NCBI RefSeq assembly: GCF_004010195.1
Contig: NC_057752.1
Span: 11,910,777-11,963,058, forward strand
Reading direction: 5' to 3'
Origin: Chiloscyllium plagiosum
Lineage: Eukaryota
DNA: 52,282 nucleotides
The notes under the pieces: generated by a model
What the model was told of the DNA's origin: nothing
Databases searched by the model: none
What the model saw: only the letters and a program-made list of their open reading frames with translations
Part shown: in pieces, positions 926-52,282 of the stretch
Layout: each line of letters opens with the position of its first letter
Position numbering within the stretch: position 1 is the stretch's first letter
Position numbers and translations under genes: made by a program

Positions 926-1034
926 AGAACAAAAATTGTTGTCCTGTTTTAGTATAGAAATGGCAGCATTTTAACAATGAGCCAGAGCTTCAGTGACATT
1001 GAAACTCTAATGAGACCTTTTGGAAACCTTTCAG

Positions 1035-1151
1035 CATCATTCACGACGTGTGTATGAGATTCTTCGGCTACGTGTGACCAACATGAGTGATCCAGCGCAA
1101 AGCAGCGAGTACCGACTGGATGTGAAACGCAGACTTGCTATTCCTTTTAAG
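1035..1151 (+). CDS. HAT1: Histone acetyltransferase 1, penultimate coding exon
   Basis: tttcAG acceptor (1033-1034), GTattt donor (1152); 117 bp, phase 0-0. Encodes HHSRRVYEILRLRVTNMSDPAQSSEYRLDVKRRLAIPFK, matching vertebrate HAT1 QHARRVYEILRLLVTDMSDAEQYRSYRLDIKRRLISPYK as recalled. Confidence 0.95.
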
Positions 1152-1293
1152 GTATTTCAATCTATGAAGAACAGATCTGGAGCAATGATTTTTGGAGGTG
1201 GACGTAGGAAGAGGATGAATGGAGACATGGGTGGGGATACCAAAGTAAAATGTAAGGGTCATCCACTCTACATTCCTGACCATGTTACATGTT

Positions 1294-2914: not shown

Positions 2915-5900
2915 AAGAAAATTTACAGTCCAGGAACAGGCCCTTCTGCCCTCCAAACCTGAGCTGATCAAAATCCACTGTCTAAACCTGTCACCCAATT
3001 CCTAGGCATCTGTATCCCTCTGCTTCCCCACTTCCTCTCACATTTGTCCAGATGCATCTTAAATGAATCTACCGTGCCTGTCTCTATTATCTCTGCTGGC
3101 AACGTGTTTCAGACGCCCACCACCCTCTGTGTGAAGTACTTACCGTGTGTATCCCCCTTAAACTTTTCACCTCTCGCCTTGAAAGCATGACCTCCCGTTA
3201 TTGAATCCCTCACCCTGGGAAAAAGTTTATCTCTGTCTACCCTGTCTATACCCTTCATGATTTTGTAGACCTCAATCAGGTCCCCCCTCAATCTCCTTTT
3301 TTCTAATGAAAACAATCCTAACCTACTCAACCTCTCTTCATAGCTTCCATGCCAGGCAACATCCTGGTAAACTTTATCTGCACCCTCTCCAAAGTGTCCA
3401 CATCCTTTTGGTAATGTGGCAACCAGAACTGTGTACACAGTATTCTAAATGCGGCCAAACCAACGATTGTATAATTTTAACATAACTACCAGCTCTTCTA
3501 CTCAATACCTCGTCCAATGAAGGCAAGCATACCATATGCCTTCTTGACCACTCTATCCACCTGTGCAGCAACCTTCAGGGTACAATGGACCTGAACTCCC
3601 AGATCTCTCTGCTCATCAACTTTTCCCAAGGCTCTTCTGTTTACTGTATAAATCACTCTAGAATTAGACTTCCCAAAATGTATCACCTCACATTTGCCTG
3701 GATTGAACTCCATCTGCTACTTCTCCGCCCAACTCTCCAGTCTGTCTATATTCTCTTGTATTCTTTGACAGTCCCCTATACTTTCTGCTACTCCACCAAT
3801 CTTTGTGTCATCTGCAGACTTGCTGATCATACCAACAGTGCCTTCTTCCAGATCATTTATATATTTTACAAACAACAGTGGCCCCAACATTGACCCCTGT
3901 GGAACATCAGTGGTCACCTTTCTCCATTTCGAGAAACTCCCTTCAACTATTACTCTCTGTCTCCTGTTGCTCAACCAGTTCTTTATCCACCTGGCTAGAA
4001 CACCCTGCACACCATGTGACTTCACTTTCTCCATTCGTCTACCATGGGGAACCTTATCAAATGCCTTACTAAAGTCCATGTATATGATATCTACATCCCT
4101 TCCTTCATCTATCAACTTGATCACTTCCTCAAAAAACTCTAAGTTAGTAAGGCACGATCTCCCCTGCACAAAACCACGTTGCCTGTCACTGAGAAGCCCA
4201 TTCTTTTCCAAATATAAATAGATTTTATCCCTCAGTACCTTCTCCAGCAACTTTCCCACCACTGACGTCAGGCTAACTGATCTGTAGTTACCTGGATTTT
4301 CCCTACTCTCTTCCTTGTATAAGGAGACAACGTGAGCAACCCTCCAGTCCTCCGGCACCTCACCTGTATCTAAGGATGCTACAAAGATATCTGTCAGGGC
4401 CCCAGCTACTTCCTCTCTCACCTCCCTCAGCAACCTGGGATAGTTCCTCAAAGTTTTCATTCACAACAAGGTCCCTTTCATTAGTGAAAACCAAAGCAAA
4501 AAACTCATTTAGGTCTTCCCCTAGCTGCTCGGACTCCACGCACAAGTTCCCTCCGCTATCCCTAACTGGTCCTACCTTCTCTCTGATCATTCTCTTATTC
4601 CTCACATATGAGTAAAATGCCTTTGGGTTCTCCCTAATCCTTCCCGCCAAACCTTTTTCGTGCCCCCTCCTGGTTCTCCTCAGTCCATTTCTGAGTTCCA
4701 TTCTAGCAAGCTTGTAATCCTTTAAAACAGTACGAGACCCTTGCTTCCTCCACCTTACGTACGCTGCCTTCTTCCTTTTGATGAGAAGCCCCTCTGTTCT
4801 TGTCATCTAAGGCTCTTTAATCTTACCCCTTCTTGCCTGTCTCAGAGGAACAAATTAGTGCATCACTCCCAACAACTGCTCCTTAAACAGTCTGCACATG
4901 TTTGTTGTGCCCTTTCTAGGGAACAATTACTCCCAATCTGTACTTCCCAACTCCTGTCTGATAGCATCATAATTTCCTTTTCCCGAATTAAATATCTTCC
5001 CATGGGAACTGCTCCTTTCCCTCTCCGTGGCTATGGTAAATGTGAGGCAGTTATGGTCACTGTCACCAAAGTGTTCTCTCACCAGGAGATCTGACACCTG
5101 TCCTGGCTCATTGCTGAGCACCAAATCCAAAATTGCCTCTCCCTCATCGGTCTGTCTACATACTGAGTAAGGAAACCTGACAAAAATGGCTCCATCCAAA
5201 CGATCTGCACTTAGGAGGTTCCAGTCAATACTGGGAAAGTTGAAGTCACCCATAACAACAACCCTGCTACATCTGCGTTTTTCCAAAATCTACCAGCGTA
5301 TGAGTTCTTCGATCTTCCTACTTCTGTTTGAGGGTTTTCTCCAGACCCCCTATGAGGTGACTGCTCCTTTGCTGTTCCTAACTTCCACCTATACTAACTC
5401 AGTAGACAAACCTTCCTCGACAACCTCCGTTTCTGTAGCTGTGACGCTCTTTCTGATTAGCATTGCTACGCCGCCCTTCTCTTTTTCCACCCTCCCTATT
5501 CTTGTTAAATATTCTCAACCCAAGCAACCATTCCTGCCCCTGTGAAACCCATGTCTCCATTATGGCCACAACATCATAGAGCATGGATCAGTACTTGGGA
5601 CTAAGTTCATCACTCTTATTTCTGACACTCCTTGCGTTAAAACAGACACACTTTAACCAATTCCTTTGTTTCATCAAGTGAAAAACCTTCCTGATAGATT
5701 CACCACATCCTGTCACTGCCCTGTCTAAAACTGCTCGCCCCCCTCAGATGTATAGCTCTGGTTCCCACCCCCCCTGCCAAACTAGTTTAAACCCTCCCAA
5801 ACCATACGAGCAAATCTCCCACCCAGGACATTGTGCCCCTCCAGTTCAGATGCAACCCGTCCTCCATGTGCAGGTCCCACCTTCCCCAGAAGGTATCCCA

Positions 5901-13869: not shown

Positions 13870-15280
13870 TAATGGAAAGGGTACTGAGGGATAGGATTTA
13901 TAAGTATCTGGAAAGACACTGCTTGATTAGGGACAGCCAGCACGGATTTGTGAGGGGTAGGTCTTGCCTTACAAGTCTTATTGAATTCTTTGAGGAGGTG
14001 ACCAAGCATGTGATTAGATTAGATTACTTACAGTGTGGAAACAGGCCCTTCGGCCCAACAAGTCCACACCAACCCGCCGAAGTGTAACCCACCCATACCC
14101 CTACATTTACCCCTTACCTAACACTACGGGCAATTTAGCATGGCCAATTCACCTGACCTGCACATCTTTGTGACTGTGGGAGGAAACCGGAGCACCCGGA
14201 GGAAACCCACGCAGACACGGGGAGAACGTGCAAACTCCACACAGTCAGTCGCCTGAGGCGGGAACTGAACCCAGGTCTTTGGCGCTGTGAGGCAGCAGTG
14301 CTAACCACTGTGCCACCGTGCTGCATGTGGATGAGGGTAGAGCAGTGGATGTAGTGTACATGGATTTTAGTAAGGCATTTGATAAGGTTCCCCATTGTAG
14401 GCTTATGCGGAAAGTAAGGAGGCATGGGATAGTGGGAAATTTGGCCAGTTGGATAGAGAACTGGCTAACCGGTCGAAGTCAGAGAGTGGTGGTAGATGGT
14501 AAATATTCAGCCTGGAGCCCAGTTACAAGTGGAGTTCCGCAGGGATCAGTTCTGGGTCCTCTGCTGTTTGTAATTTTTATTAATGACTTGGAAGAGGGAG
14601 TTTTATTAATGACTTAGATGAGGGAGCCGAAGGGTGGGTCAGTAAATTTGCAGATGATACGAAGATAGGTGGAGTTGTGGACAGTGAGGAGGGCTGTTGT
14701 CGGCTGCAGAGGGACTTAGATATGATGCAGAGCTGGGCTGAGGAGTGGCAGATGGAGTTCAACCCTGCCAAGTGTGAGGTTGTCCATTTTGGAAGAACAA
14801 ATAAGAATGCGGAATACAGGGTTAACGGTAGCAGAGGGATCTTGGGGTCTATGTACATAGATCTTTGAAGGTTGCCACTCAGGTGGATAGAGTTTATAAG
14901 AAGGCCTATGGAGTATTATCGTTCATTAGCAGAGGGATTGAATCCAAGAGTCGTGAAGTGATGTGGCAGCTGTACAGGACTTTGGTTAGGCCACAGTTGG
15001 AGTACTGTGTGCAGTTCTGGTCACCTCACTTTAGGAAAGATGTGGAAGCTTTAGAGAGGGTGCAGAGAAGATTTACCAGGATGTTGCCTGGAACGGAGAG
15101 GAAGTCATACGAGGGGGCATGGAATGCGCTGCCTGTGGGAGTGGCAGAGTCAGCATCATTGGTGACCTTTAAGCGACAATTGGATAGGTACATGGATAGG
15201 TGCTTAAGCTAGGACAAATGTTTGGCACAACATCATGGGCCGAAGGGCCTGTTCTGTGCTGTATTGTTCTATGTTCTAGA
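13870..15280 (+). mobile_element. CR1 RT fragment interrupted by a SINE
   Basis: HGFVRGRSCLTSLIEFFEEVTKH continues after the SINE as [23 protein letters not shown]; 3' tail near 15275. Confidence 0.9.
14013..14322 (-). mobile_element. Full-length tRNA SINE with 7-bp target-site duplication
   Basis: GCATGTG at 14006-14012 and 14323-14329; A/B boxes; (TAATC)n tail. Confidence 0.92.
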
Positions 15281-17975: not shown

Positions 17976-18391
17976 GATTCAATGCATCAGGAGGCGCCCA
18001 TTTTAAACAGAGATGACTTTTGTCCTCTCCCGGAGATATCGAGACTGTGGAACTCTTCCTGAAAAGGTGGTAGAAGTAGAGTTATTGAACATGTGTGAGT
18101 TAGTGTTCGATTCTAATTATGCAAGAGGGTCAAAGGTTACCAGAGGTAGTGTTACCGGATCAGTCGTCGTATTTATTGAATGCGGAGCAGGCTCGACATG
18201 TATCGTGCTAGACCCTTTCAGAGTGGGAACTTAGAAAGAGGGCATCTACAGTACTTGCAAATAATCAAATTGCCGTGTGTTTGTGTATCCCCACCTCGTG
18301 AATAGGAGGAAAGGATTGAGGAAAAAGCGCGGGCTGGCTCGCTGCACTCGGAAGGAGATCTTCTCATTGGCAATGCCGGAGGCGGTTCTCA

Positions 18392-18406
18392 GGGAAAACG
18401 AAACTG
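18392..18406 (+). promoter_or_regulatory. Interferon-stimulated response element (ISRE/IRF site) in CpG-rich promoter region
   Basis: GGGAAAACGAAACTG, reverse complement CAGTTTCGTTTTCCC, fits AGTTTCNNTTTC; about 105 bp upstream of ATG 18510 in non-repetitive CpG-rich DNA. Confidence 0.7.
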
Positions 18407-18509
18407 TTGTTAATTTTGAATTTGGAAAAGCAGCTCAGTGTGTCCTGATTGAGTGGCGCGGATGTGTCGCTCGGTCTCTCTGTTGGGATTCCTTTCACAA
18501 AAGAACACC

Positions 18510-18789
18510 ATGACAACCGGACAGTTCCTGCTTGAGGTCCTCGATGAACTGAGCGAAAATGATTTCGAAAGGTTCCGATTCCATCTCGAGGACAGCGCGG
18601 AATTTAAACCGATAGCCCGCGGGCGGTTGGAGGGAAAATCTCGGCAGGAATTGGCTTCTCTCCTCCAGCACATTTATGGAAAGCAGGCTCGAGATATCAG
18701 CAGAAAGGTCCTGCTTCAAATTCCCAGGCATGACCTAGTGGGGAAAATGTTTGGAGACGGAGACATGAGTGGCTCCGAGGGCACTCGAG
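18510..18789 (+). CDS. PYD-DD adaptor, exon 1 (pyrin domain)
   Basis: Kozak context ACACCATGA. MTTGQFLLEVLDELSENDFERFRFHLEDSAEFKPIARGRLEGKSRQELASLLQHIYGKQARDISRKVLLQIPRHDLVGKM shows the PYD pattern. Donor G|GTAACA at 18790, phase 1. Confidence 0.9.
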
Positions 18790-19539
18790 GTAACAGAACA
18801 CAACACGTCATTTATACCAAATAAAATAGAGCTGAAACAAAAACAACCTAAGGTTCGCCAGCAGTTTCCGTTTTTGCTCAATTACACAAGCGCCGCTTGG
18901 AACTGATAAAGGAGGAAATGAGATAAACAACGAGGGATTTTTTTGTTGGGGGGGGCAGGAGTGCGGAGAACAAATATCCCTTTCTGAGCATCCTCTTTCT
19001 ATTCCCACCTCCCCCTCCCCCTGTGTGTGTCCTCTCCAGATGTGTTCCCGTACACTTATGTATATCCTCCATGAATCCCACCCACCCTTCAGCCTCTCTA
19101 TATCCCCGTGTGAATCCTTCCTCTGTCACTATCATGTGTATCCTCCCTATCCTACCATCTCTTCTGCTGTGTATTGTCCCCACATCGCACCTTTGTGACC
19201 TTCTTATCTCCCCCCTTCACTGTGTATTCTTCTGTTCCTCTCTTCTAATCACCCCTCACTCTTGATCCTGCTTGTATTACACCCGCTTTCCACCTCTTCC
19301 TTCCTGTATCCCACTCTCTCATGTCCCTGTACCCCCACCACCAAGGTGAAGGAGCAGTGCTCCGAAAGGTAGTGCTTCCAATTAAACCTGTTGGACTGTA
19401 ACCTGGTCTTGTGTGATTTTTAACTTTGTACCCCCACTCCCGCCGCAAAGTGTATGCATCCAGTATTTATTAGTTATAAAATGGATCAAGTGTCAACTGT
19501 TTTTGCAGAGGATTCCAAACTTTTGCTAATGTGCACGCA

Positions 19540-20752
19540 CACAAATCTTCTGGAATTTTTTGAGAATGTAACTCTGAAGATGGACAAGGGAGATCCAGTG
19601 GATGTAGTGTACCTGGACTTTCAGAAAGCCTTTGATAAAGTCCCACATAGGAGGTTAGTGAGCAAAATTAGGGCGCATGGTATTGGGGACAGAATACTGA
19701 CTTGGATTGAAAATTGGTTGGCTGACAGGAAACAAAGAGTAGTGATAAACAACTCCCTTTCGGAATGGCAGGCAGTGACCAGTGGGGTACCGCAGGGATC
19801 AGTGCTGGGACCACAGCTTTTTACAATATACATTAATGATATAGATGATGGTATTATAAGTAATATTAGCAAATTTGCTGATGATACAAATCTGGGTGGC
19901 AGGGTGAAATGTTAGGAGGTTACAGGGTGACCTGGACAGGTTAGATGAGTGGACAGATGCATGGCAGATGCAGTTTAATGTGGATAAATGTGTGGTTATC
20001 TACTTTGGTGGCAAGAACAGGAAGGCAGATTACTACAAAATGGAGTCAAGTTAGGTAACGGGGCAGTACAATGAGATCTAGGTGTTCTTGTACATCAGTG
20101 TGAAGAAAGCTAATAGCATGCTGGTCTTCATAACAAGAGGAATTGAGTATAGAAGCAAAGAGGTTCTTCTGCAGCTCTACAGGGCCCTGGTGAGACCACA
20201 TCTGGAATATTGTGTGCAGTTTTGGTCTCCAAATTTGAGGAAAGACATTCTGGCTATTGAGGGAGTGCAGCGTAGGTTCACAAGGTCAATTCCCGGAATG
20301 GCGGGACTATCTTACATTGAAAGATTAGAGAGACTGGGCTTGTATACCCTTGAGTTTAGAAGGCTGAGAGGGGATCTGATTGAGACGTATAAGATTATTA
20401 AAGGATTGGACACTCTGGAGGCAGGAAGCATGTTTCCGTTGATGGGTGAGTACCGAACCAGACGACACAGTTTCAAAATAAGGGGTAGGCCACTTAGAAC
20501 AGAGTTGAGGAGAAACTTCTTCACCCAGAGAGTGGTGGGTGTGTGGAATGCTCTGCCCCAAAAGGCTGTGGAGGCCAAGTCTCTGGATACTTTCAAGAAA
20601 GAGTTGGATAGAGCTCTTAAGGATAGTGGAATCAAGGGTTATGGGGATAAGGCAGGAACAGGATACTGATTGAGGATGATCAGCCATGATCATAATAAAT
20701 GATGGTGCTGGCTCAAAGGGCAGAATGGCCTACTCCTGCACCTATTGTCTAT
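19540..20752 (+). mobile_element. CR1 RT/3' fragment in intron 1 of the PYD-DD gene
   Basis: [46 protein letters not shown] and a 3' tail. Confidence 0.93.
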
Positions 20753-20962
20753 TACCCTAAATTTACTCCTGAAAGACCTATTTTTGTGACTATCCCCCAC
20801 CCAGACTCCAATTTCTCTTAGCATCTTGAAAATGTTGTGACTAAATCAAATCACACTCCTTCACTGGATCCACGTTCCTTGAAGTCCTTAATATCCAAAA
20901 ATATCTGGTACAGAATGTGAATTGTCCCTGATTAATCTACAGAGGTTTTCAAAATCAAGAGT

Positions 20963-21160
20963 GAGATTAGAGTTGAGAGTGCGGTGCTGGAAAAGCACAG
21001 CATGTTAGGCAGCATCCGAGGAGCAGGAGAGTCAGCGTTTCAGGCAAAAGCCCTTCACCTTTTGCCCGACTCTCTTGCTCCTCGGATGCTGTCTGACCTG
21101 CTGTGCTTTTCCAGCACCGCACTCTCAACTCTAATCTCCAGTATCTGCAGTCCTCACTTT
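20963..21160. mobile_element. Palindromic Penelope-derived element
   Basis: Inverted arms of about 70 bp (GAGATTAGAGTTGAGAGTGCGGTGCTGGAAAAGCACAGC.. / ..GCTGTGCTTTTCCAGCACCGCACTCTCAACTCTAATCTC); half copies at ~11738 and ~39216. Confidence 0.75.
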
Positions 21161-21316
21161 CACCTGGAGATTTTCAAAGGGTCATTGTTAAGAAAATTAA
21201 TTTAGAAGTTGCTTATATCTCATATTGGGCTCAGGGGACCTTGGCAGAAGTAAGTCAGCTATACTGCCTTTGGAGTTGACTGGATTTGAATTCTAATATC
21301 TTGCTCTTTTTCATAG

Positions 21317-21409
21317 TGCAGAGGAAGAGAGAGAGACTGAAGGACTGTGAATCTGATGGAGCTCTGTCTGAGCCTTCAGACAATGAAATGATCATGTCAA
21401 AGAAAAACA
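21317..21409 (+). CDS. PYD-DD adaptor, exon 2 (linker)
   Basis: ctctttttcatAG acceptor, A|GTACGT donor; 93 bp, phase 1-1, open: (V)QRKRERLKDCESDGALSEPSDNEMIMSKKN. Absent from the ORF track. Confidence 0.8.
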
Positions 21410-21624
21410 GTACGTATAATCTCACTTAAGAATTCCTTTAAAAATAACATTTGTATGGAATATTTCAAACAGGATACAGAAGATACAAGATCACAATGCA
21501 GCATTCACTGGATAGTAATCACTGATGGGGATTGAGAGAGACTTCTGTGTGACACTCACTGCCATTTAGTTAAAGCTCCTCTGGCCAAATGTTTCATTCT
21601 AATATTTTATTTTTTTGTTTGCAG

Positions 21625-21914
21625 AGGTGGAGCCAAAGATACTGACAGACAAAAAACTGATGCAATTGGCCAAAAACATGGGGCATAATTGGCAGCAAAT
21701 TGGAATCCAATTCCTAGACCTGCAAAGCCACGAAATTGAACAATGTGAAGCTCAGCAGCGGTTAGTTGTCTTGCAGAGATTTGAAATGCTCAAACGCTGG
21801 AGAAACCGCGAAAAGGAGGGAGCCACTGCTGTCAAACTTCACTCCATTCTTTCTAACAAGGAATGCCCCATTAGTTCTGCACAATTGAATTGTCTTCTTG
21901 AAGAAAACCCATGA
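21625..21914 (+). CDS. PYD-DD adaptor, exon 3 (death domain)
   Basis: Strong T-tract and gcAG acceptor, phase 1. (K)VEPKILTDKKLMQLAKNMGHNWQQIGIQFLDLQSHEIEQCEAQQRLVVLQRFEMLKRWRNREKEGATAVKLHSILSNKECPISSAQLNCLLEENP* has the DD signature LA..MG..W..IG / EI / ML..W..R....AT...L. Confidence 0.9.
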
Positions 21915-22074
21915 CCAAAGTCAATGAGGAGAGTACTTTGCTTTTTTAAAAAAACCTTAAAATGTACAAAATTTAAGATTCATTTAATGTATTTTTTTAA
22001 TTTCCATGATTGATACCCATATCTTTTTGCATTAAACCGAAGATACTACTGAAAAGGAATGATTGATTTATTAT

Positions 22075-23060
22075 CCATTTGCAGCAGTGGGAGCAGCGAG
22101 AACGCAGACTGGAGGCTACCGGGAAGGTAAACTTCCCTCTTAAAGACTTACCTTGTGAGGAGGTGAAGCAAAGGCTCAACAGGAGTGGACGCGGACACGG
22201 GACTTGCTGGGCACGTGAACTGATATTTTGGGGCCTGCAATTAACCCCGAAATACTACACGTTGTGCCTCCCACCCATTCTCCTCTAACCAAACAAATGA
22301 CTGAGTGGAGGGTTGGTAAGGTCAGGCTTTTAAAAAATGTTTTTCAATCTCTCTTTGCAATTTAGATCAGCAGGGATGGAGGCTAGGGCAGTTGCATGCT
22401 CCTCCTGCAGGATGTGGGAGGTAAGGGTCATCACTGGTATCCCTGCTGACTTCGCCTGCGAGAAGTGCACCCAACTCCAGCTCCTCACAGACCGCGTTAG
22501 GGAACTGGAGCTGGATGAACTTTGGATCATTGGGAGGCTGAGGGGGAGAGAGGGGAGTTACAGGGAGGTAGTCACACTAAAGGGGGAGCTAAAAGAGGTG
22601 GAGAAGTGGCATTACTAATCAGGGATAGTATCACAGCTGCAAAAAGGGAGGTCTTCGAGGAGGGTTTGTCTATTGAGTCAGTATGGGTGGAAGTCAGAAA
22701 CAGGAAAGGAGCAGTCACTTTATTGGGAGTTTCCAAGAGACACAGAGGAGCTGATTGGGAGGCAGATTTTGGACAAGGTGCAGAAGAATCATGGTTGTCT
22801 TGGTGACTTTAACTTCCCTAATATTGATTGGAACCTCCTTAGTACAAATAGTTTGGATGGAGCAGTTTTTGTCAGGTGTGTCCAGGAAGGGTTCCTGACT
22901 CAATCCGTAGACAGGCTGACTAGAGGGGAGGCCATATTGGATCTGCCAAGTGTCAGATACCTTGGTGGGAGAGCATTTCAGTGATAGTGATCACAACTCC
23001 CTGACCTTCACTATAGTCATGGAGGGGGATAGAAGCAGATGGTATGGGAAAGTATTTAAT
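22075..23060 (+). mobile_element. CR1 5' portion, internally deleted (ORF1 zinc finger plus endonuclease fragments)
   Basis: MEARAVACSSCRMWE..CEKCTQLQLLTDRVRELEL, then ESVWVEVRN and GDFNFPNIDW. Confidence 0.85.
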
Positions 23061-30419: not shown

Positions 30420-31590
30420 CATAGAACATTACAGCGTAGTACAGGCCCTTCGGCTCTCGATGTTGCGCTGACCTGTGAAACCACTCTGAAGCCCATCTAA
30501 CCTATACTATTCCATATGCCTATCCAATGACCATTTAAATGCCCATAAAGTTGGTGAGTCTACTACTGTTGCAGGCATTGCATTCCACCCCCCTACTCCT
30601 CTGAGTAAAGAAACTACCTCTGACATCTGTCCTATATCTATCATCCCTCAATTTATAGCTACGTCACCTCGTGCTAGCCATCACCATCCGAGGAAAAAGG
30701 CTCTCACTGTCCACCCTATCTAATCCTCCAATTATCTTTTATGTCTCAATTAAGTCACCTTTCAACCTTCTTCTCTAACGAAAACAGTCTCAAAAGACCC
30801 TCAGCCTTTCCTCATAAGACCTCCCGTCCATACCAGGCAACATCTTAGTAAGTCTCCTCTGAACCCTTTCCAAAGCTTCCACATCCTTCCTATACTACGG
30901 TGACCAGAACTGTATGCAGTACTCCAAGTGTGGCTGCATCAGAGTTTTGTACAGCTGCAGCATGATCTCATGGCACCGAAACTCAATCCCTCTCCCAATA
31001 AAAGCTAACACACCATATGCCTTCTTAACAACCCTTTCAATCCAGGTGGCAACTTAAGGATCTATGTACCCAGACACAGAGATCCCTGTGCTCATCTACA
31101 CTACCGAGAATCTTACCATTAGCCCAGTACTCTGTATTCCTGATACTCCTTCCAAAATGAATCACCTCACACTTTTCTGCATTAAATGACATTTGGCACC
31201 TCTCAGCTCAGCTCTGCAGCTTATCTATGTCTCTCTAACCTACAACATCCTTCATCACTATCTACAACTCTGCCTACCTTAGTGTCATCCACAAATTTAC
31301 TAACCCATCCTTCCATGCCCTCATCCAGGTCATTTATAAAAATGACAAACAGCTGTAGACCCAAAATAGATCCTTGTGGTACACCACTAGCAACTGAACT
31401 GCAAGATGAATATTTCCCATCAACAACCATCCTCTGTCTCCTTTCAGCTAGCCAATTTCTGATCCAAACCACTAAAATACCTTCAATCCCATGCCTTCAT
31501 ATTTTGTGCAATAGCCTACCCTGTGGAACCTTATCAAACGCCTTACTGAAATCCATATACACCACGTCAACCGCTTTACCCTCATCCAGA
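30420..31590 (-). mobile_element. CR1 RT/3' fragment
   Basis: SGVPQGSILG, SKFVDDTKVG; 3' tail near 30420. Confidence 0.88.
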
Positions 31591-31837
31591 TTCCTAACAT
31601 CTGACCTGCTCTTGTAGCTACTATATTTATATGTCTGGTCCAGTTCAGTTTCTGGTCAATGGTAACCCCTAGGATGTTGATAGTGTGCAATTCAATGATT
31701 ATAATGCTAATGCATGACAAGAGGAGACAGTTAGATTTTCTCTTGTTGGAGGTGGTCATTTCCTGGCATTTGTGTGGCACAAATGTGATTTGCCACTTTT
31801 CAGCCCAAACCTGAACGTCGCCCATTTCTTGTATCAG

Positions 31838-32012
31838 AGTTAAACATCACATGACACCAGGTTATAATTTAACAGGTTTATTTGAAAAGTACAAGATTTC
31901 AGAGCACTGCTCCTTCGTCAGGTAGCTATGAAGGAGCAGTGCTCCGAAAGTGTTGGACTATAACCTGGTGTTGTGTGATTTTAACTTTGTCCACCCCAGT
32001 CCAACACCAGCA
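31838..32012. mobile_element. Palindromic Penelope-derived element inserted in an older LINE remnant
   Basis: Inverted arms with decayed hammerhead cores on opposite strands (CTGACGA-aggagcagtgctct-GAAA on minus; ..TGA-aggagcagtgctcc-GAAA on plus). Confidence 0.7.
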
Positions 32013-33167
32013 CCTCCCATCATCAGTATCTGAGGATTCACAAATGGTGCTGAATATTGCGCAATCATTGGCAAACATCCCCACTTCTGACCTTACAATG
32101 GAGAGAAGACCATTGATGGAGTAGCTGAAGATGGTTGGGTCTAGGACACTACCCTGAGGAACTCCCGCAGAGGTGTTCTGTAGCTGTGATGACGGACCTT
32201 CAACAACCACAACCATCTTCCTATGTGCCATGTATGACTCCAACCAGCAAAGAATTTGCCCCGATTCCCAGGGACTCCAGTTTTGCTAGGGCTCCTTGAT
32301 GCCACACTTTCGGGGCAACTGAGCATGCATGCTCACTCAGAAACACACATGCATTGGTTCCAGACTCTCTAGGTTACTGCATCATGCAGAAAGTACAGAC
32401 TACTCATGCACAGAACAGGCACAACCCTGAAATGAGAATTGGACATGATTGGAAGAAGACAACAGATGAGATCCACTCACACCCCCAAACATAGGTAGAT
32501 AATGTTATGATCACCATTTGATAAATACTCTTTGATAAATGACTCTATGAATCTTGCACCATTAAGATGTGAACTAAATGTGTCTCATTATGGATTACTA
32601 ATCTAATCTAATGTGGAATGGCCCTTGTTAGTTCTAGGGCATCATATTTGAGAAAATTACCTTAGATACACTCTAGAAATTCACTACCTTTCTGACATCT
32701 ACTAGTTTGATTATTCCAATCTGAAAGGCAAAATTTTCCCATTACCATCTTTCCTACATGCTTGGCATGATACATTCTACTACTTTACAACTATGATGAC
32801 CGTTTTCTATCTCTTAATTCTACCTATAAAGTTTCCACTACATACACTACTGAATGACAAAAGGATACAACGAGGGGTAACATCTCTTCAATCAGTCATT
32901 ATGACTATCTCTCCCATGACTATTTTCCAGAGTCTTTTCTGCGGACCATATAATCTTGTTTATTCAGTCCCTAGTCTTGATTGGCTTACATCCATATCCC
33001 AGTACAGCTACCACATCTGACCCTCCAAGTTGAACTTGCACCTGCAAATCATTACTGTCCATAATAACTGAATCCAGGAAATTCAGTAAGGTTAATTTCA
33101 TGCAGACATATTTGAAAACTGAAGACCAGAGGCTGGTCCGTCCTCACTTTAATGCTGACACACTCAC

Positions 33168-43880: not shown

Positions 43881-45305
43881 AGACCATAAGACATAGGAGC
43901 GGAAGTAAGGCCATTCGGCCCATCGAGTCCACTCCGCCATTCAATCATGGCTGATGGGCATTTCAACTCCATTTACCCGCATTCTCCCTGTAGCCCTTAC
44001 TTCCTTGTGACATCAAGAATTTATCAATCTCTGCCTTGAAGACATTTAGTATCCCAGCCTCCACTGCACTCTGTGGCAATGAATTCCACAGGCCCACCAC
44101 TCTCTGGCTGAAGAAATGTCTCCGCATTTCTGTTCTGAATTTACCCCCTCTAATTCTAAGGCTGTGTCCACGGGTACTAGTCTCCTCGCCTAACGGAAAC
44201 AAATTCCTCACGTCCACCCTCTCCAAGCCATGTATTATCTTGTAAGCTTCTATTAGATCTCCCCTTAATCTTCTAAACTCCAATGAATACAATCCCAGGA
44301 CCCTCAGCCGTTCCCCGTATGTTAGACCTGCCATTCTAGGGATCATCCGTGTGAATCTCCGCTGGACACGCTCCAATGCCAGTATGTCCTTCCTGAGGNN
44401 NNNNNNNNNNNNNNNNNNNNNNNNNNNNNNNNNNNNNNNNNNNNNNNNNNNNNNNNNNNNNNNNNNNNNNNNNNNNNNNNNNNNNNNNNNNNNNNNNNNN
44501 NNNNNNNNNNNNNNNNNNNNNNNNNNNNNNNNNNNNNNNNNNNNNNNNNNNNNNNNNNNNNNNNNNNNNNNNNNNNNNNNNNNNNNNNNNNNNNNNNNNN
44601 NNNNNNNNNNNNNNNNNNNNNNNNNNNNNNNNNNNNNNNNNNNNNNNNNNNNNNNNNNNNNNNNNNNNNNNNNNNNNNNNNNNNNNNNNNNNNNNNNNNN
44701 NNNNNNNNNNNNNNNNNNNNNNNNNNNNNNNNNNNNNNNNNNNNNNNNNNNNNNNNNNNNNNNNNNNNNNNNNNNNNNNNNNNNNNNNNNNNNNNNNNNN
44801 NNNNNNNNNNNNNNNNNNNNNNNNNNNNNNNNNNNNNNNNNNNNNNNNNNNNNNNNNNNNNNNNNNNNNNNNNNNNNNNNNNNNNNNNNNNNNNNNNNNN
44901 NNNNNNNNNNNNNNNNNNNNNNNNNNNNNNNNNNNNNNNNNNNNNNNNNNNNNNNNNNNNNNNNNNNGAGGTTAGGCTAATTGGCCTATAGTTTTCCATC
45001 TTTTGCTTTGATCCTTTCTTGAACAAGGGGGTTACAACGCGATCTTCCAATCATCTGGGACTTTCCAGGATTCCAGTGACTTTTGAAAGATCTCAACCAA
45101 CGCCTCCGCTATTTCCTCAGCCACTTCTCTCAGAACTCCAGGATGCAGCCCATCGGGGAGAGGAGATTTATCAATTTTAAGACCTTTTAGCTTTTCTAGC
45201 ACTTTCTCTTTTGTAATGGCAACCATACTCAACTCAGCCCCCTGACTCCCTTTAATTGTTGGGATATTACTCATGTCTTCCACTGTGAAGACTGACGCAA
45301 AGTAT
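43881..45305 (-). mobile_element. Young CR1 copy spanning an assembly gap
   Basis: Open ORF2 C-terminus (ERVQRRFTRMIP..RHFFSQRVVGLWNSLP); KSPLPDGLHP and ENYRPISLT on the other side of the gap. Confidence 0.9.
44399..44967. other. Assembly gap (569 N)
   Basis: Run of N. Confidence 1.
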
Positions 45306-45789: not shown

Positions 45790-47070
45790 ATCTTTGTCAT
45801 CTCTTCCAATGGTGACGAGACTGGCATCTACCCAACAATGCGGAAAATTGCCCAGGCATGTTCTAACCCACCCAATTACTGCCCAATCAGTTTACACGAT
45901 CAGTAAAGCGGTGGAAGGTGGCATCAATAGCATGCTCACTGACACCCAGTTTGGGTTCCACCAGGGCCACTCATTATAGCCTTGGTTCAAACATGGACGA
46001 AAGAAAGAAAGAGTTGAACTCCAGAGGGGAGGTGACAGTGACACCTTAACATCAAGGCTGCATTTGTCCATGTGTGGCACCAAGGAGCCCTGGCAAAACT
46101 GGAACTGAAGAAAACTCTCCATTGCCTGGAGTCATACCTGGCACAAAAGGAAGATAGCTGTGGTTATGGAGGTCAGTTATGTTTGCTCCAGGATAGCTCT
46201 GCTAGAGCTCCTCAGGGTAGTGTCTTAGGCCCAACCATCTTCAGCTACTTCAGCAATGACCTTTCTCCATCATAAGGTCAGGTGCTGATGATTAATCAGT
46301 GTTCAGCACCACTCACAACTCCTCAGATACTGAAGCAGTCCATATTCAAATGCAGAAGACTTGGGCTTCCACACAATATCCAGGCTTGGGCTGATAAGTG
46401 GCAAATAACATTCGCACCACACAAATGCAAGGCAATGACTATCTCTAATGAGAGTCAATCTAACAACTGCCCCATGATATTCAATGATATTACCATCACT
46501 AAATCCCCCACTATCAACATCCTTGGGGGTTACTGTTGATCAGAAACTCAACTGGACTCACCACATAAATGCAATGGTTACAAGTGGTGCAGTAACACTC
46601 AAGAATTTCCATGCTGTACACCTCTATGACTCTAAGCTTGACACCATCCAGGACAAAGCAACCCACTTGATTGGCAGCACATCCAAAAACATCCACTCCC
46701 TCCCCCACTGACGCTCTGTAGCAGCAATGTGCACCATCTACAAGGTGCGCTGCAGAAATTCACCAAAATCCTCAGACTGCATCTTCCAAACCCACAACTA
46801 CTCCCTTGAAGACCAAGAGCAGCAAATACATGGGAACACCACCACCTGCAAGTTCCCCTCCGAGCCACTCACCATTCTGACTGTTCCTTCATTGTCACTG
46901 GGTTAAAACCCTGGAATTCCTTCCCTAAGGGCATTGAGAGTCAACCTACAGCACGTGGACTTCAGCAGTTCAAGAAGGCAGCTCACCCCTACCTTCTCAA
47001 GGGGGGGCAACTAGGAATAGGCAATAAATGCTGGCCAGCCAGCAATGCTCATGTCGCCTGGGTGAATTAA
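45790..47070 (+). mobile_element. Degenerate CR1/L2-group LINE (second family)
   Basis: [44 protein letters not shown]; 3' tail near 47040. Confidence 0.82.
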
Positions 47071-49382: not shown

Positions 49383-49882
49383 NNNNNNNNNNNNNNNNNN
49401 NNNNNNNNNNNNNNNNNNNNNNNNNNNNNNNNNNNNNNNNNNNNNNNNNNNNNNNNNNNNNNNNNNNNNNNNNNNNNNNNNNNNNNNNNNNNNNNNNNNN
49501 NNNNNNNNNNNNNNNNNNNNNNNNNNNNNNNNNNNNNNNNNNNNNNNNNNNNNNNNNNNNNNNNNNNNNNNNNNNNNNNNNNNNNNNNNNNNNNNNNNNN
49601 NNNNNNNNNNNNNNNNNNNNNNNNNNNNNNNNNNNNNNNNNNNNNNNNNNNNNNNNNNNNNNNNNNNNNNNNNNNNNNNNNNNNNNNNNNNNNNNNNNNN
49701 NNNNNNNNNNNNNNNNNNNNNNNNNNNNNNNNNNNNNNNNNNNNNNNNNNNNNNNNNNNNNNNNNNNNNNNNNNNNNNNNNNNNNNNNNNNNNNNNNNNN
49801 NNNNNNNNNNNNNNNNNNNNNNNNNNNNNNNNNNNNNNNNNNNNNNNNNNNNNNNNNNNNNNNNNNNNNNNNNNNNNNNNNN
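49383..49882. other. Assembly gap (500 N)
   Basis: Run of exactly 500 N, so the true size may differ. Confidence 1.
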
Positions 49883-51053: not shown

Positions 51054-52282
51054 GTGGGAGAGAATCCTGAGGGACAGGATTTACATGTATTTGGAAAGGC
51101 AAGGACTGATTAGGGAAAGTCAACATGGCTTTGTGCCATGGGAAATCATGTCTCACAAACTTGATTGAGTTTTTTGAAAAAGTAACAAAAAGAACATTGA
51201 TGAGTGCAGAGCAGTAGATGTGATCTATATGGACTTCAGTAAGACCTTCGACAAGGTTCCCCATGAGAGGCTGGTTAGCAAGGTTAGATCTCATGGAATA
51301 CAGGGAGAACTAGCCATTTGGATACAGAACTGGCTCAAAGGTAGAAGATCTGGTGGTGGAGGGTTGTTTTTCAGACTGGAGGCCTGTGACCAGTGGAGTC
51401 CCACAAGGATCAGTGCTGGGTCCACTACTTTTTATCATTTATATTAGTAAGTTGGATATGAACATAGGAGGTATAGCAGGTAAGTTTGCAGATTACACCA
51501 AAATTGGAGGCATAGTGGACAGCGAAGAGGGTTACCTCAGATTACAACGGGATCTTGATCAGATGGGCCAGTGGGCTAAGGAGTGGCAGATGGAGTTTAA
51601 TTCAGAATAATGTGAGCTGCTGCATTTTGGAAAGGAAATATTAGCAGGGCTTATACACTTAATGATAAGGTCCTAGGGAGTGTTGCTGAACAAAGAGACC
51701 TTGGAGTGCAGGTTCATAGCTCCTTGAAAGTAGTGTCGCAGGTAGATAGGATAGTGAAGGCGGCATTTGGTATGCTTTCCTTTATTGATCAGAGCACTGA
51801 GTATAGGAGTTGGGAGGTCATGTTGCGGCTGTATAGGATTTGGTGGGTTCGGCCACTTTTGGAATATTGTGTGCAATACTGGTCTCCTTCCTGTCGGAAA
51901 GATGTTGTGAAACTCAAAAAGGTTCAGAAAAAGGATTTACAAAGACGTTGCCAGGTTTGGAGGATTTGAACTATAGGGAGAGATTGAATAGGCTGGGGCT
52001 GTTTTCCCTGGAGCATCGGAGGCTGAGGGGTGACCTTATAGAGGTTTACAAAATCATGAGGGGCATGGATAGGATAAATAGACAAAGTATTTTCCCTGGG
52101 GTGGGGGAGTCCAGAACTAGAGGGCATAGGTTTAGGGTGAGAGGGGAAAGATATAAAAGGGACCTAAGGGGCAACTTTTTCACACAGAGGGTGGTACGTG
52201 TATGGAATGAGCTGCCAGAGGAAGTGGTACAATTACAGCATTTAGAACATAGAACATAGAACAATACAGCACAGAACAGGCC

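Follow-up and report, generated by a model that had tools for sequence, protein, structure and literature searches.

Death-fold adaptors decide which sensors reach which caspases, and the closest described relative of the protein considered here is a short protein of birds, often annotated as 'CRADD protein', in which a pyrin domain (PYD) or death effector domain (DED) is combined with a death domain (DD) (section 9 of PMC11258412; Genome Biol Evol 2024). The same paper reports this protein from coelacanth, reptiles, caecilians and marsupials as well and states that songbirds have no other PYD protein. It was met there in a search for the missing NLRP3 adaptor of birds, judged not to connect NLRP3 to caspase-1 and then set aside, and that section gives no function for it. 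In this study, we analysed a stretch of 52,282 nt from the bamboo shark Chiloscyllium plagiosum (assembly GCF_004010195.1, contig NC_057752.1, positions 11,910,777 to 11,963,058 of the forward strand; the window in what follows), which holds a gene for a protein with the architecture and size of the one presented in PMC11258412. We show here that this is an intact, spliced and transcribed gene of three coding exons, which encodes a PYD, a disordered basic linker and a DD. The gene, its architecture and its orthology can be regarded as practically certain; the reading of the product as a bipartite, that is two-domain, death-fold adaptor is a prediction to which we give, taken as a whole, a probability of roughly 0.55.

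An initial annotation of this stretch had joined three exons by eye, and the exon lengths of 280, 93 and 290 nt, the exon borders, the phase-1 GT-AG introns and the open 663-nt reading frame are exactly as given there (Table 1). When spliced, the exons encode 220 amino acids (aa) and a stop, and this product is, letter for letter, residues 17–236 of an annotated 236-aa bamboo-shark protein, 'uncharacterized protein zgc:174906' (P0194), which was found through a 90% cluster look-up; a search with exon 3 also gave annotated shark proteins of 217–221 aa with both Pfam domains. The whole of P0194 results from the same three-exon splice begun at the in-frame upstream ATG 18462. The start codon is the one correction to the gene model, as the database model uses 18462 while most cartilaginous-fish orthologs point to 18510: the position of ATG 18510 is the start in 13 of the 14 other cartilaginous-fish proteins of a 32-sequence alignment, and the chimaera model starts 12 residues upstream of it. 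The 16 extra N-terminal residues of P0194 have low confidence in the AlphaFold2 model. Besides the in-frame ATG 18462, three further ATGs with short frames of 35–46 codons (18180, 18198 and 18373) precede the conserved start, and these could possibly reflect translation control or a transcription start further downstream.

Transcription was read from the spliced geometry of contigs from four sequencing runs of four organisms, the run type not being on record as RNA. A 1485-letter contig (X7 record 25) covers 18272–18787, continues with 95 letters and then covers 21625–22494; a length of 95 is what the final 2 nt of exon 1 and the 93 nt of exon 2 would add up to. This contig runs from exon 1 to exon 3, and the co-transcription of the exons, on which the initial annotation depended, is thus confirmed. 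Likewise, X3 record 9 extends 95 letters beyond 18787, and the letters preceding 21625 number 93 in X6 record 23 and 123 in X1 record 8. The bin of exon 2 is covered in all four runs and that of intron 2 has a depth of 0 in all four (Table 1). As the exon 2 pieces and the two joints themselves are absent from the alignments listed, the inclusion of exon 2 is deduced from the letter counts and the covered bin. Contig depths over 19229–21286 in intron 1 are in the thousands, as is expected from the repeats at this place. Annotated isoforms that lack exactly the exon 2 segment are present in Cetorhinus and Carcharodon (190 aa), Pristiophorus (186 aa) and Rhinoraja (189 aa), and exon 2, in which the basic motifs RKRER and KK are conserved, is therefore best described as an optional, frame-preserving cassette.

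The domain assignments of the initial annotation have held up well. Exon 1 matches the Pfam family PYRIN with 61 bits (E 1.3e-16; cut-off 22.9) but reaches only 11.9 bits with DED, below the cut-off of 35.9, so that the N-terminal domain is a PYD and not a DED. Exon 3 matches Death with 36.3 bits (E 6.1e-9; cut-off 22.6), and CARD was not listed for either exon at E≤10, which makes the C-terminal domain a DD and not a CARD; exon 2 matched no Pfam family. Among solved structures, the nearest relatives of the PYD by sequence are the PYDs of NLRP10, NLRP6 and NLRP9, and the nearest relative of the DD is CRADD (E 3e-4), followed by ankyrin-3, FADD and RIPK1, the latter two with E-values of 4e-3 to 1e-2. 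An AlphaFold2 model of P0194 built on the 32-sequence alignment, with a mean predicted local distance difference test score (pLDDT) of 77 and a predicted template modelling score of 0.40, consists of two helical bundles with a pLDDT of about 84–96, separated by a disordered linker at residues 100–142. This linker of about 43 aa, largely encoded by the optional exon, corresponds to the charged linker of about 45 aa noted before. The top rows of a Foldseek search with this model were the PYDs of NLRP3 and NLRP10 and the DD of RAIDD, and the NLRP9 PYD fold was also matched; no match reached E 0.001, since the query has two domains. The RAIDD DD was the best DD by fold, with a template modelling (TM) score of 0.82 on the target, a root mean square deviation of 2.4 Å and 29% identity. 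Since CRADD/RAIDD thus comes out on top both by sequence and by fold, the likeness to RAIDD seen by eye was right.

The bamboo-shark gene is, as judged by homology over the full length of its product, a member of a small family conserved across jawed vertebrates. With a profile built from five shark proteins, 31 proteins of similar length were retrieved; they belong to sharks, rays and skates, coelacanth, alligators and lizards, and both PF02758 and PF00531 are present in 23 of them. In an exhaustive search of representative sequences 744 matches were obtained at E≤1e-3, and 32 proteins out of the 150 listed were taken for Pfam analysis; 15 of the 32 were PYRIN plus Death proteins (one with Death under the cut-off), 11 were CARD plus Death, three were FIIND-UPA-Death, two had Death only and one had three DDs. 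According to the names, which were looked up for 30 proteins, the PYD plus DD set includes a caecilian, two salamanders, a turtle, alligators, lizards, a snake, four birds, the echidna and three marsupials, in addition to sharks, rays, Callorhinchus and Latimeria, the annotated orthologs being 185–245 aa long; no placental member was among the proteins looked up, no search having been aimed at placentals. The chimaera Callorhinchus and one marsupial member were confirmed as PYD plus DD proteins by Pfam. Identity to the window protein over the full length ranges in the 32-sequence alignment from 95% down to 28%; tetrapod and coelacanth proteins gave full-length, single-stretch matches in the profile search, and the proteins of Rhea, Nyctibius, Willisornis, coelacanth, caecilian, reptiles and marsupials align full-length with the window protein. 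This protein thus has what marks the family of short PYD-DD adaptors, namely an N-terminal PYD, a C-terminal DD and no further domain, a length of about 200–240 aa and full-length relatedness. Some orthologs are annotated as 'FADD-like', and the shark, ray and coelacanth orthologs bear the database name zgc:174906.

Neither the gene nor its architecture is therefore new, as the novelty implied in the initial annotation fails on three grounds: the exact protein is in the databases (P0194), family members occur throughout the jawed vertebrates, non-placental mammals among them, and the architecture has been published (PMC11258412). The accompanying remark that no mammalian PYD-DD adaptor is known is contradicted by the annotated PYD plus DD orthologs of the echidna and of three marsupials and is true at most for placentals. 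It had also been allowed that a characterised ortholog might already exist; orthologs have indeed been described in print, but no functional study of any PYD-DD family member was found in the literature searched, including the work on bird NLRP3 and the absence of ASC from 2024 on. In comparison with the present analysis, the sections of PMC11258412 that deal with the PYD-DD protein are without cartilaginous fish, monotremes and salamanders, and without the FIIND-UPA-DD link and the CARD-bearing ray-finned relatives described below. Added here are the members in these three groups, the optional linker exon, a FIIND-UPA-DD paralogue as candidate partner and a CARD-bearing counterpart in ray-finned fish. 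With a copy in sharks, the family dates to the common ancestor of jawed vertebrates.

To place the DD among its relatives, the shark's own genome was scanned, with four PYRIN exons and 26 Death, five FIIND and 28 CARD matches, all counts being lower bounds. The nearest of the 26 DDs is located at C13:26577435 (41% identity, E 9e-17), followed by a DD on C18 (36%) and then by the DD of the shark's own CRADD (26%), whose DD and CARD are located at C23:4159987 and C23:4175933, respectively. A FADD-like DD on C16, so named from reading its sequence, matches the adaptor DD weakly (E 0.007). The C18 DD matched THOC1, RIPK1 and PIDD about equally, and no N-terminal domain was found for it with the queries used; PIDD1 was not identified in the own-genome scan. 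The C13 DD forms the final exon of a FIIND-UPA-DD gene (C13:26547227–26577762, plus strand), which corresponds with 100% identity to an annotated 539-aa protein (P0183) and is conserved in 11 cartilaginous-fish species; similar proteins are present in bichir, sturgeon and anchovy. P0183 has the FIIND-UPA layout of CARD8, except that a DD takes the place of the CARD. An SSLSPVG stretch of P0183 sits at the position expected for the SF/S cleavage motif known from NLRP1 and CARD8. A separate pair of FIIND and CARD matches was seen on C25 (16401760 and 16425515).

In a quick maximum-likelihood tree of 72 DDs and 95 columns, the DDs of the PYD-DD, CARD-DD and FIIND-DD proteins and the C18 DD are set apart from the other DDs of the shark genome, including that of CRADD, with a Shimodaira–Hasegawa-like approximate likelihood ratio (SH-aLRT) support of 84. 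The CRADD DD falls outside the 64-sequence clan that holds the adaptor DD, and the CARD-DD set of ray-finned fish forms one clade (support 99). Two proteins with several DDs were also seen, namely P0064 of Acipenser, a FIIND-UPA protein with two tandem DDs, and P0082 of Gadus, made up of three DDs; all of these DDs fall within the same clan as the DD of the window protein.

The CARD-DD proteins of ray-finned fish are themselves named zgc:174906 and were found in Lepisosteus (gar), Erpetoichthys (reedfish), Clarias (catfish), Sander (pikeperch) and Cyclopterus (lumpfish). They are similar in length to the shark protein and share a homologous linker and DD but have an N-terminal CARD instead of the PYD; the CARD is over the cut-off in five of the 11 proteins examined and also in P0175. 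They match the family profile from the linker on (query starts 92–108, with the DD beginning near 128), and against the family DD profile they score 84–107 bits, compared with 70–90 bits for the FIIND-DD proteins and 42 bits for the shark CRADD DD. A match from the linker onward suggests a single DD-side module whose N-terminal output domain can be exchanged. The CARD form could have arisen when an exon was swapped within one orthologous gene, or it could be an old paralogue.

Of the two-domain adaptor proposed in the initial annotation, the architecture of PYD, linker and DD is thus borne out, and the adaptor role is a reasonable prediction. According to this reading, the DD would join a DD oligomer, and the PYD would then seed or join a PYD filament, or a DED filament by PYD–DED cross-seeding, so that a signal would be passed between two otherwise incompatible death-fold systems. 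As the likeliest partner on the DD side we tentatively put forward, at well under an even chance, the UPA-DD fragment of the CARD8-like FIIND-UPA-DD protein P0183. This proposal is based on the paralogy of the two DDs and on the analogy with the cascade in which PIDD1 (ZU5-UPA-DD) acts through RAIDD (DD-CARD) on caspase-2. The partners on the PYD side would be PYD or DED proteins. A wider and more speculative proposal, which we think unlikely as it stands, is that PYD-DD is the dedicated adaptor of a FIIND-UPA-DD sensor in an ancient guard pathway of the 'death-domain type' in jawed vertebrates, parallel to PIDD1–RAIDD and to CARD8/NLRP1, in which an exchange of the first exon from PYD to CARD re-wired the output in ray-finned fish and which was lost in placentals.

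Several points weigh against an adaptor of this kind. The likeness of its DD to that of the FIIND-UPA-DD protein is, at the level of sequence homology, a matter of common descent and not of contact. A 1:1 complex prediction for the adaptor DD (residues 141–236) with residues 440–539 of the FIIND-UPA-DD protein gave a score of 0.01 in two runs made without controls, which counts neither for nor against such a contact. In the DD tree the FIIND-DD clade stands beside bird sequences, which is an impossible history, and the deeper order was therefore left unsettled. No CARD or caspase exon was found beside any of the four PYRIN exons of the shark genome, and no ASC-like or PYD-caspase partner was identified in these lower-bound scans. 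If, as stated in section 9 of PMC11258412, the PYD plus DD protein is the only PYD protein of songbirds, there is no PYD partner for it in these birds, which also speaks against a simple bridge to ASC or NLRP proteins; the N-terminal domain must then sometimes act without a PYD partner, perhaps on DED proteins. In addition, a figure legend of the same paper has the anole CARD8 end in a PYD, so that the PYD could be the sensor-facing end of the adaptor.

A DED-directed output leads to the proposal, which we hold to be quite unlikely for the shark protein, that it is a FADD-like death adaptor, whose DD would dock on death receptors, TRADD or RIPK1 and whose DED-like PYD would recruit DED caspases of the caspase-8 type, with apoptosis and not an inflammasome as the outcome. 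Pfam ranks DED second for the N-terminal domain of several orthologs, and in the snake ortholog DED is just over the cut-off (36.0 versus 35.9 bits), which fits with this proposal, as do the 'FADD-like' names of some orthologs and the presence of the FADD and RIPK1 DDs among the solved-structure matches. The seeding of caspase-8 DED filaments by the PYD of ASC is a further point in its favour. The songbirds, without another PYD protein in the account of PMC11258412, would even need a non-PYD partner. However, the shark domain is far closer to PYRIN than to DED in Pfam score, and its nearest DDs in the genome are those of the FIIND-UPA-DD protein and of C18 and not the weakly matching FADD-like DD on C16. 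A variant of the PIDDosome, in which the DD would bind PIDD1 as RAIDD does but with an output to PYD proteins instead of caspase-2, is improbable. It is consistent with CRADD being the best solved relative by sequence and the RAIDD DD the best DD by fold; yet the shark has its own CRADD, with a DD only 26% identical to that of the adaptor, PIDD1 was not identified in the own-genome scan, and the C18 DD resembles PIDD no more than it resembles THOC1 or RIPK1.

The initial annotation had also offered a decoy as an alternative, and a decoy or brake that caps or sequesters PYD or DD assemblies in the manner of PYD-only and CARD-only proteins, and so dampens signalling, is unlikely but has to be reckoned with. 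A small protein without an enzymatic part and with an optional linker exon would suit such a role, and few PYD genes were detected in the genome (at least four matches). Both domains have been kept together across jawed vertebrates, though, and a single-domain decoy would not need two. Finally, exons joined by eye carry a general risk, and this is all that speaks for an artefact in which unrelated PYD and DD exons of two genes, or a pseudogene, have been taken for one gene. Against it stand the contig that links exon 1 with exon 3, the identity of the joined protein with the annotated P0194, the full-length orthologs in many species and the lack of any other domain exon in the 52 kb. The artefact has a negligible probability and is refuted, short of a mis-assembly common to independent runs. 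The two-domain adaptor, kept from sharks to marsupials, is thus the reading that we prefer, and it represents an uncharacterised node in the wiring of sensors to caspases with two testable leads, which are the FIIND-UPA-DD protein, whose DD is the closest one in the shark genome, and the exchange of PYD for CARD in ray-finned fish.

The PYD side of the shark genome gave some further observations. A PYRIN exon at C11:82467674–82467883 (plus strand, 42 bits) is followed about 9.5 kb downstream by a HIN-200 open reading frame at C11:82477092–82477613 (plus strand, PF02760, 55 bits), and the two make up a candidate PYD-HIN (AIM2-like) gene; the PYD-HIN family is usually regarded as mammalian. Two paralogous PYD exons are located on the minus strand of C46 (7704761 and 1378504), with nothing recognisable within 20 kb downstream of either; their nearest solved relative is the NLRP6 PYD, and ASC is a far weaker match. 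The very long predicted proteins P0032 and P0033 (1552 and 2369 aa) match the PYD part of the profile at 11 and 18 separate places, respectively, and may be either arrays of tandem pyrin domains or merged gene models.

The window consists of vertebrate DNA with many fragments of long interspersed nuclear elements (LINEs). Among its 324 stop-to-stop open reading frames of at least 55 aa on both strands, only PYRIN, Death, reverse transcriptase and endonuclease families were over the Pfam cut-offs. As only LINE-type families are present besides PYRIN and Death, the domain exons are not pieces of a larger NLR-type gene within the 52 kb, and a PYD exon that belongs to an NLR gene was rejected because there is no NACHT or LRR exon in this span. 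A sub-threshold match to the C-terminal end of HAT1 at 1014–1292 (plus strand; 19.5 bits, cut-off 27) may represent the final exon of an adjacent gene and could be of use in synteny comparisons. Upstream of the adaptor gene, the interferon-response consensus GAAANNGAAACT has its single match in the window at 18394–18405 (plus strand), 105 nt upstream of ATG 18510 and within the transcribed contigs. In 20 of 100 shuffles at least one match occurred somewhere in the 52 kb, and we regard this site, which resembles an interferon-stimulated response element, as a lead only.

Table 1. Features of the window; positions are counted from its first letter
Feature	Position	Strand	Details
Transcribed 5' region (5' untranslated region)	18200–18509	+	contigs of four runs continuous from 18200–18272 to 18787–18789
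Coding exon 1	18510–18789	+	280 nt; donor GT at 18790
Pyrin domain (Pfam)	18528–18740	+	residues 7–77
Intron 1	18790–21316	+	2527 nt, phase 1; repeat-filled, including the reverse transcriptase fragment 19424–19912 (RVT_1, 67 bits)
Coding exon 2	21317–21409	+	93 nt, phase 1-1 cassette; charged linker with basic motifs RKRER and KKNK
Intron 2	21410–21624	+	215 nt, phase 1; depth 0 in bin 21434–21580 in 4/4 runs
Coding exon 3	21625–21914	+	290 nt including stop TGA 21912–21914
Death domain (Pfam)	21651–21857	+	
3' untranslated region	21915–22494	+	ATTAAA at 22031; contig ends at 21930, 21934, 22043 and 22494
LINE-type reverse transcriptase/endonuclease fragment	3720–5289	-	
LINE-type reverse transcriptase/endonuclease fragment	14291–14865	+	
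LINE-type reverse transcriptase/endonuclease fragment	19424–19912	+	in intron 1
LINE-type reverse transcriptase/endonuclease fragment	31224–32285	-	
LINE-type reverse transcriptase/endonuclease fragment	46042–46272	+	
LINE-type reverse transcriptase/endonuclease fragment	51178–51607	+	
N run	44399–44967		
N run	49383–49882		

The bamboo-shark protein shares features with established small death-fold proteins and can be equated with none of those compared here. A PYD-only protein (POP) was rejected because a co-transcribed DD is present. FADD is likewise a bipartite adaptor with a C-terminal DD, and as in the shark gene its first exon encodes the N-terminal death-fold domain; however, FADD combines a DED with its DD, the shark domain stays at 11.9 bits for DED, far from the cut-off of 35.9 and from its 61 bits for PYRIN, and the FADD DD is a weaker match than that of CRADD, so that FADD itself was also rejected. 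ASC (PYCARD) has an N-terminal PYD, a flexible linker and a second death-fold domain, as the shark protein does, and full-length ASC was among the Foldseek matches, but its C-terminal domain is a CARD where exon 3 of the shark gene scores as Death with CARD unlisted, and the gene is not ASC. With CRADD/RAIDD it has in common the plan of a death-fold adaptor of two domains, a C-terminal DD and a length of about 200 aa. CRADD/RAIDD carries a CARD N-terminally where the shark protein has a PYD, and the shark has a separate CRADD gene; with no CARD in exon 1, and with the DD of the shark's own CRADD only third-closest and outside the clan of the adaptor in the tree, the PYD-DD adaptor stands beside CRADD as a different gene.

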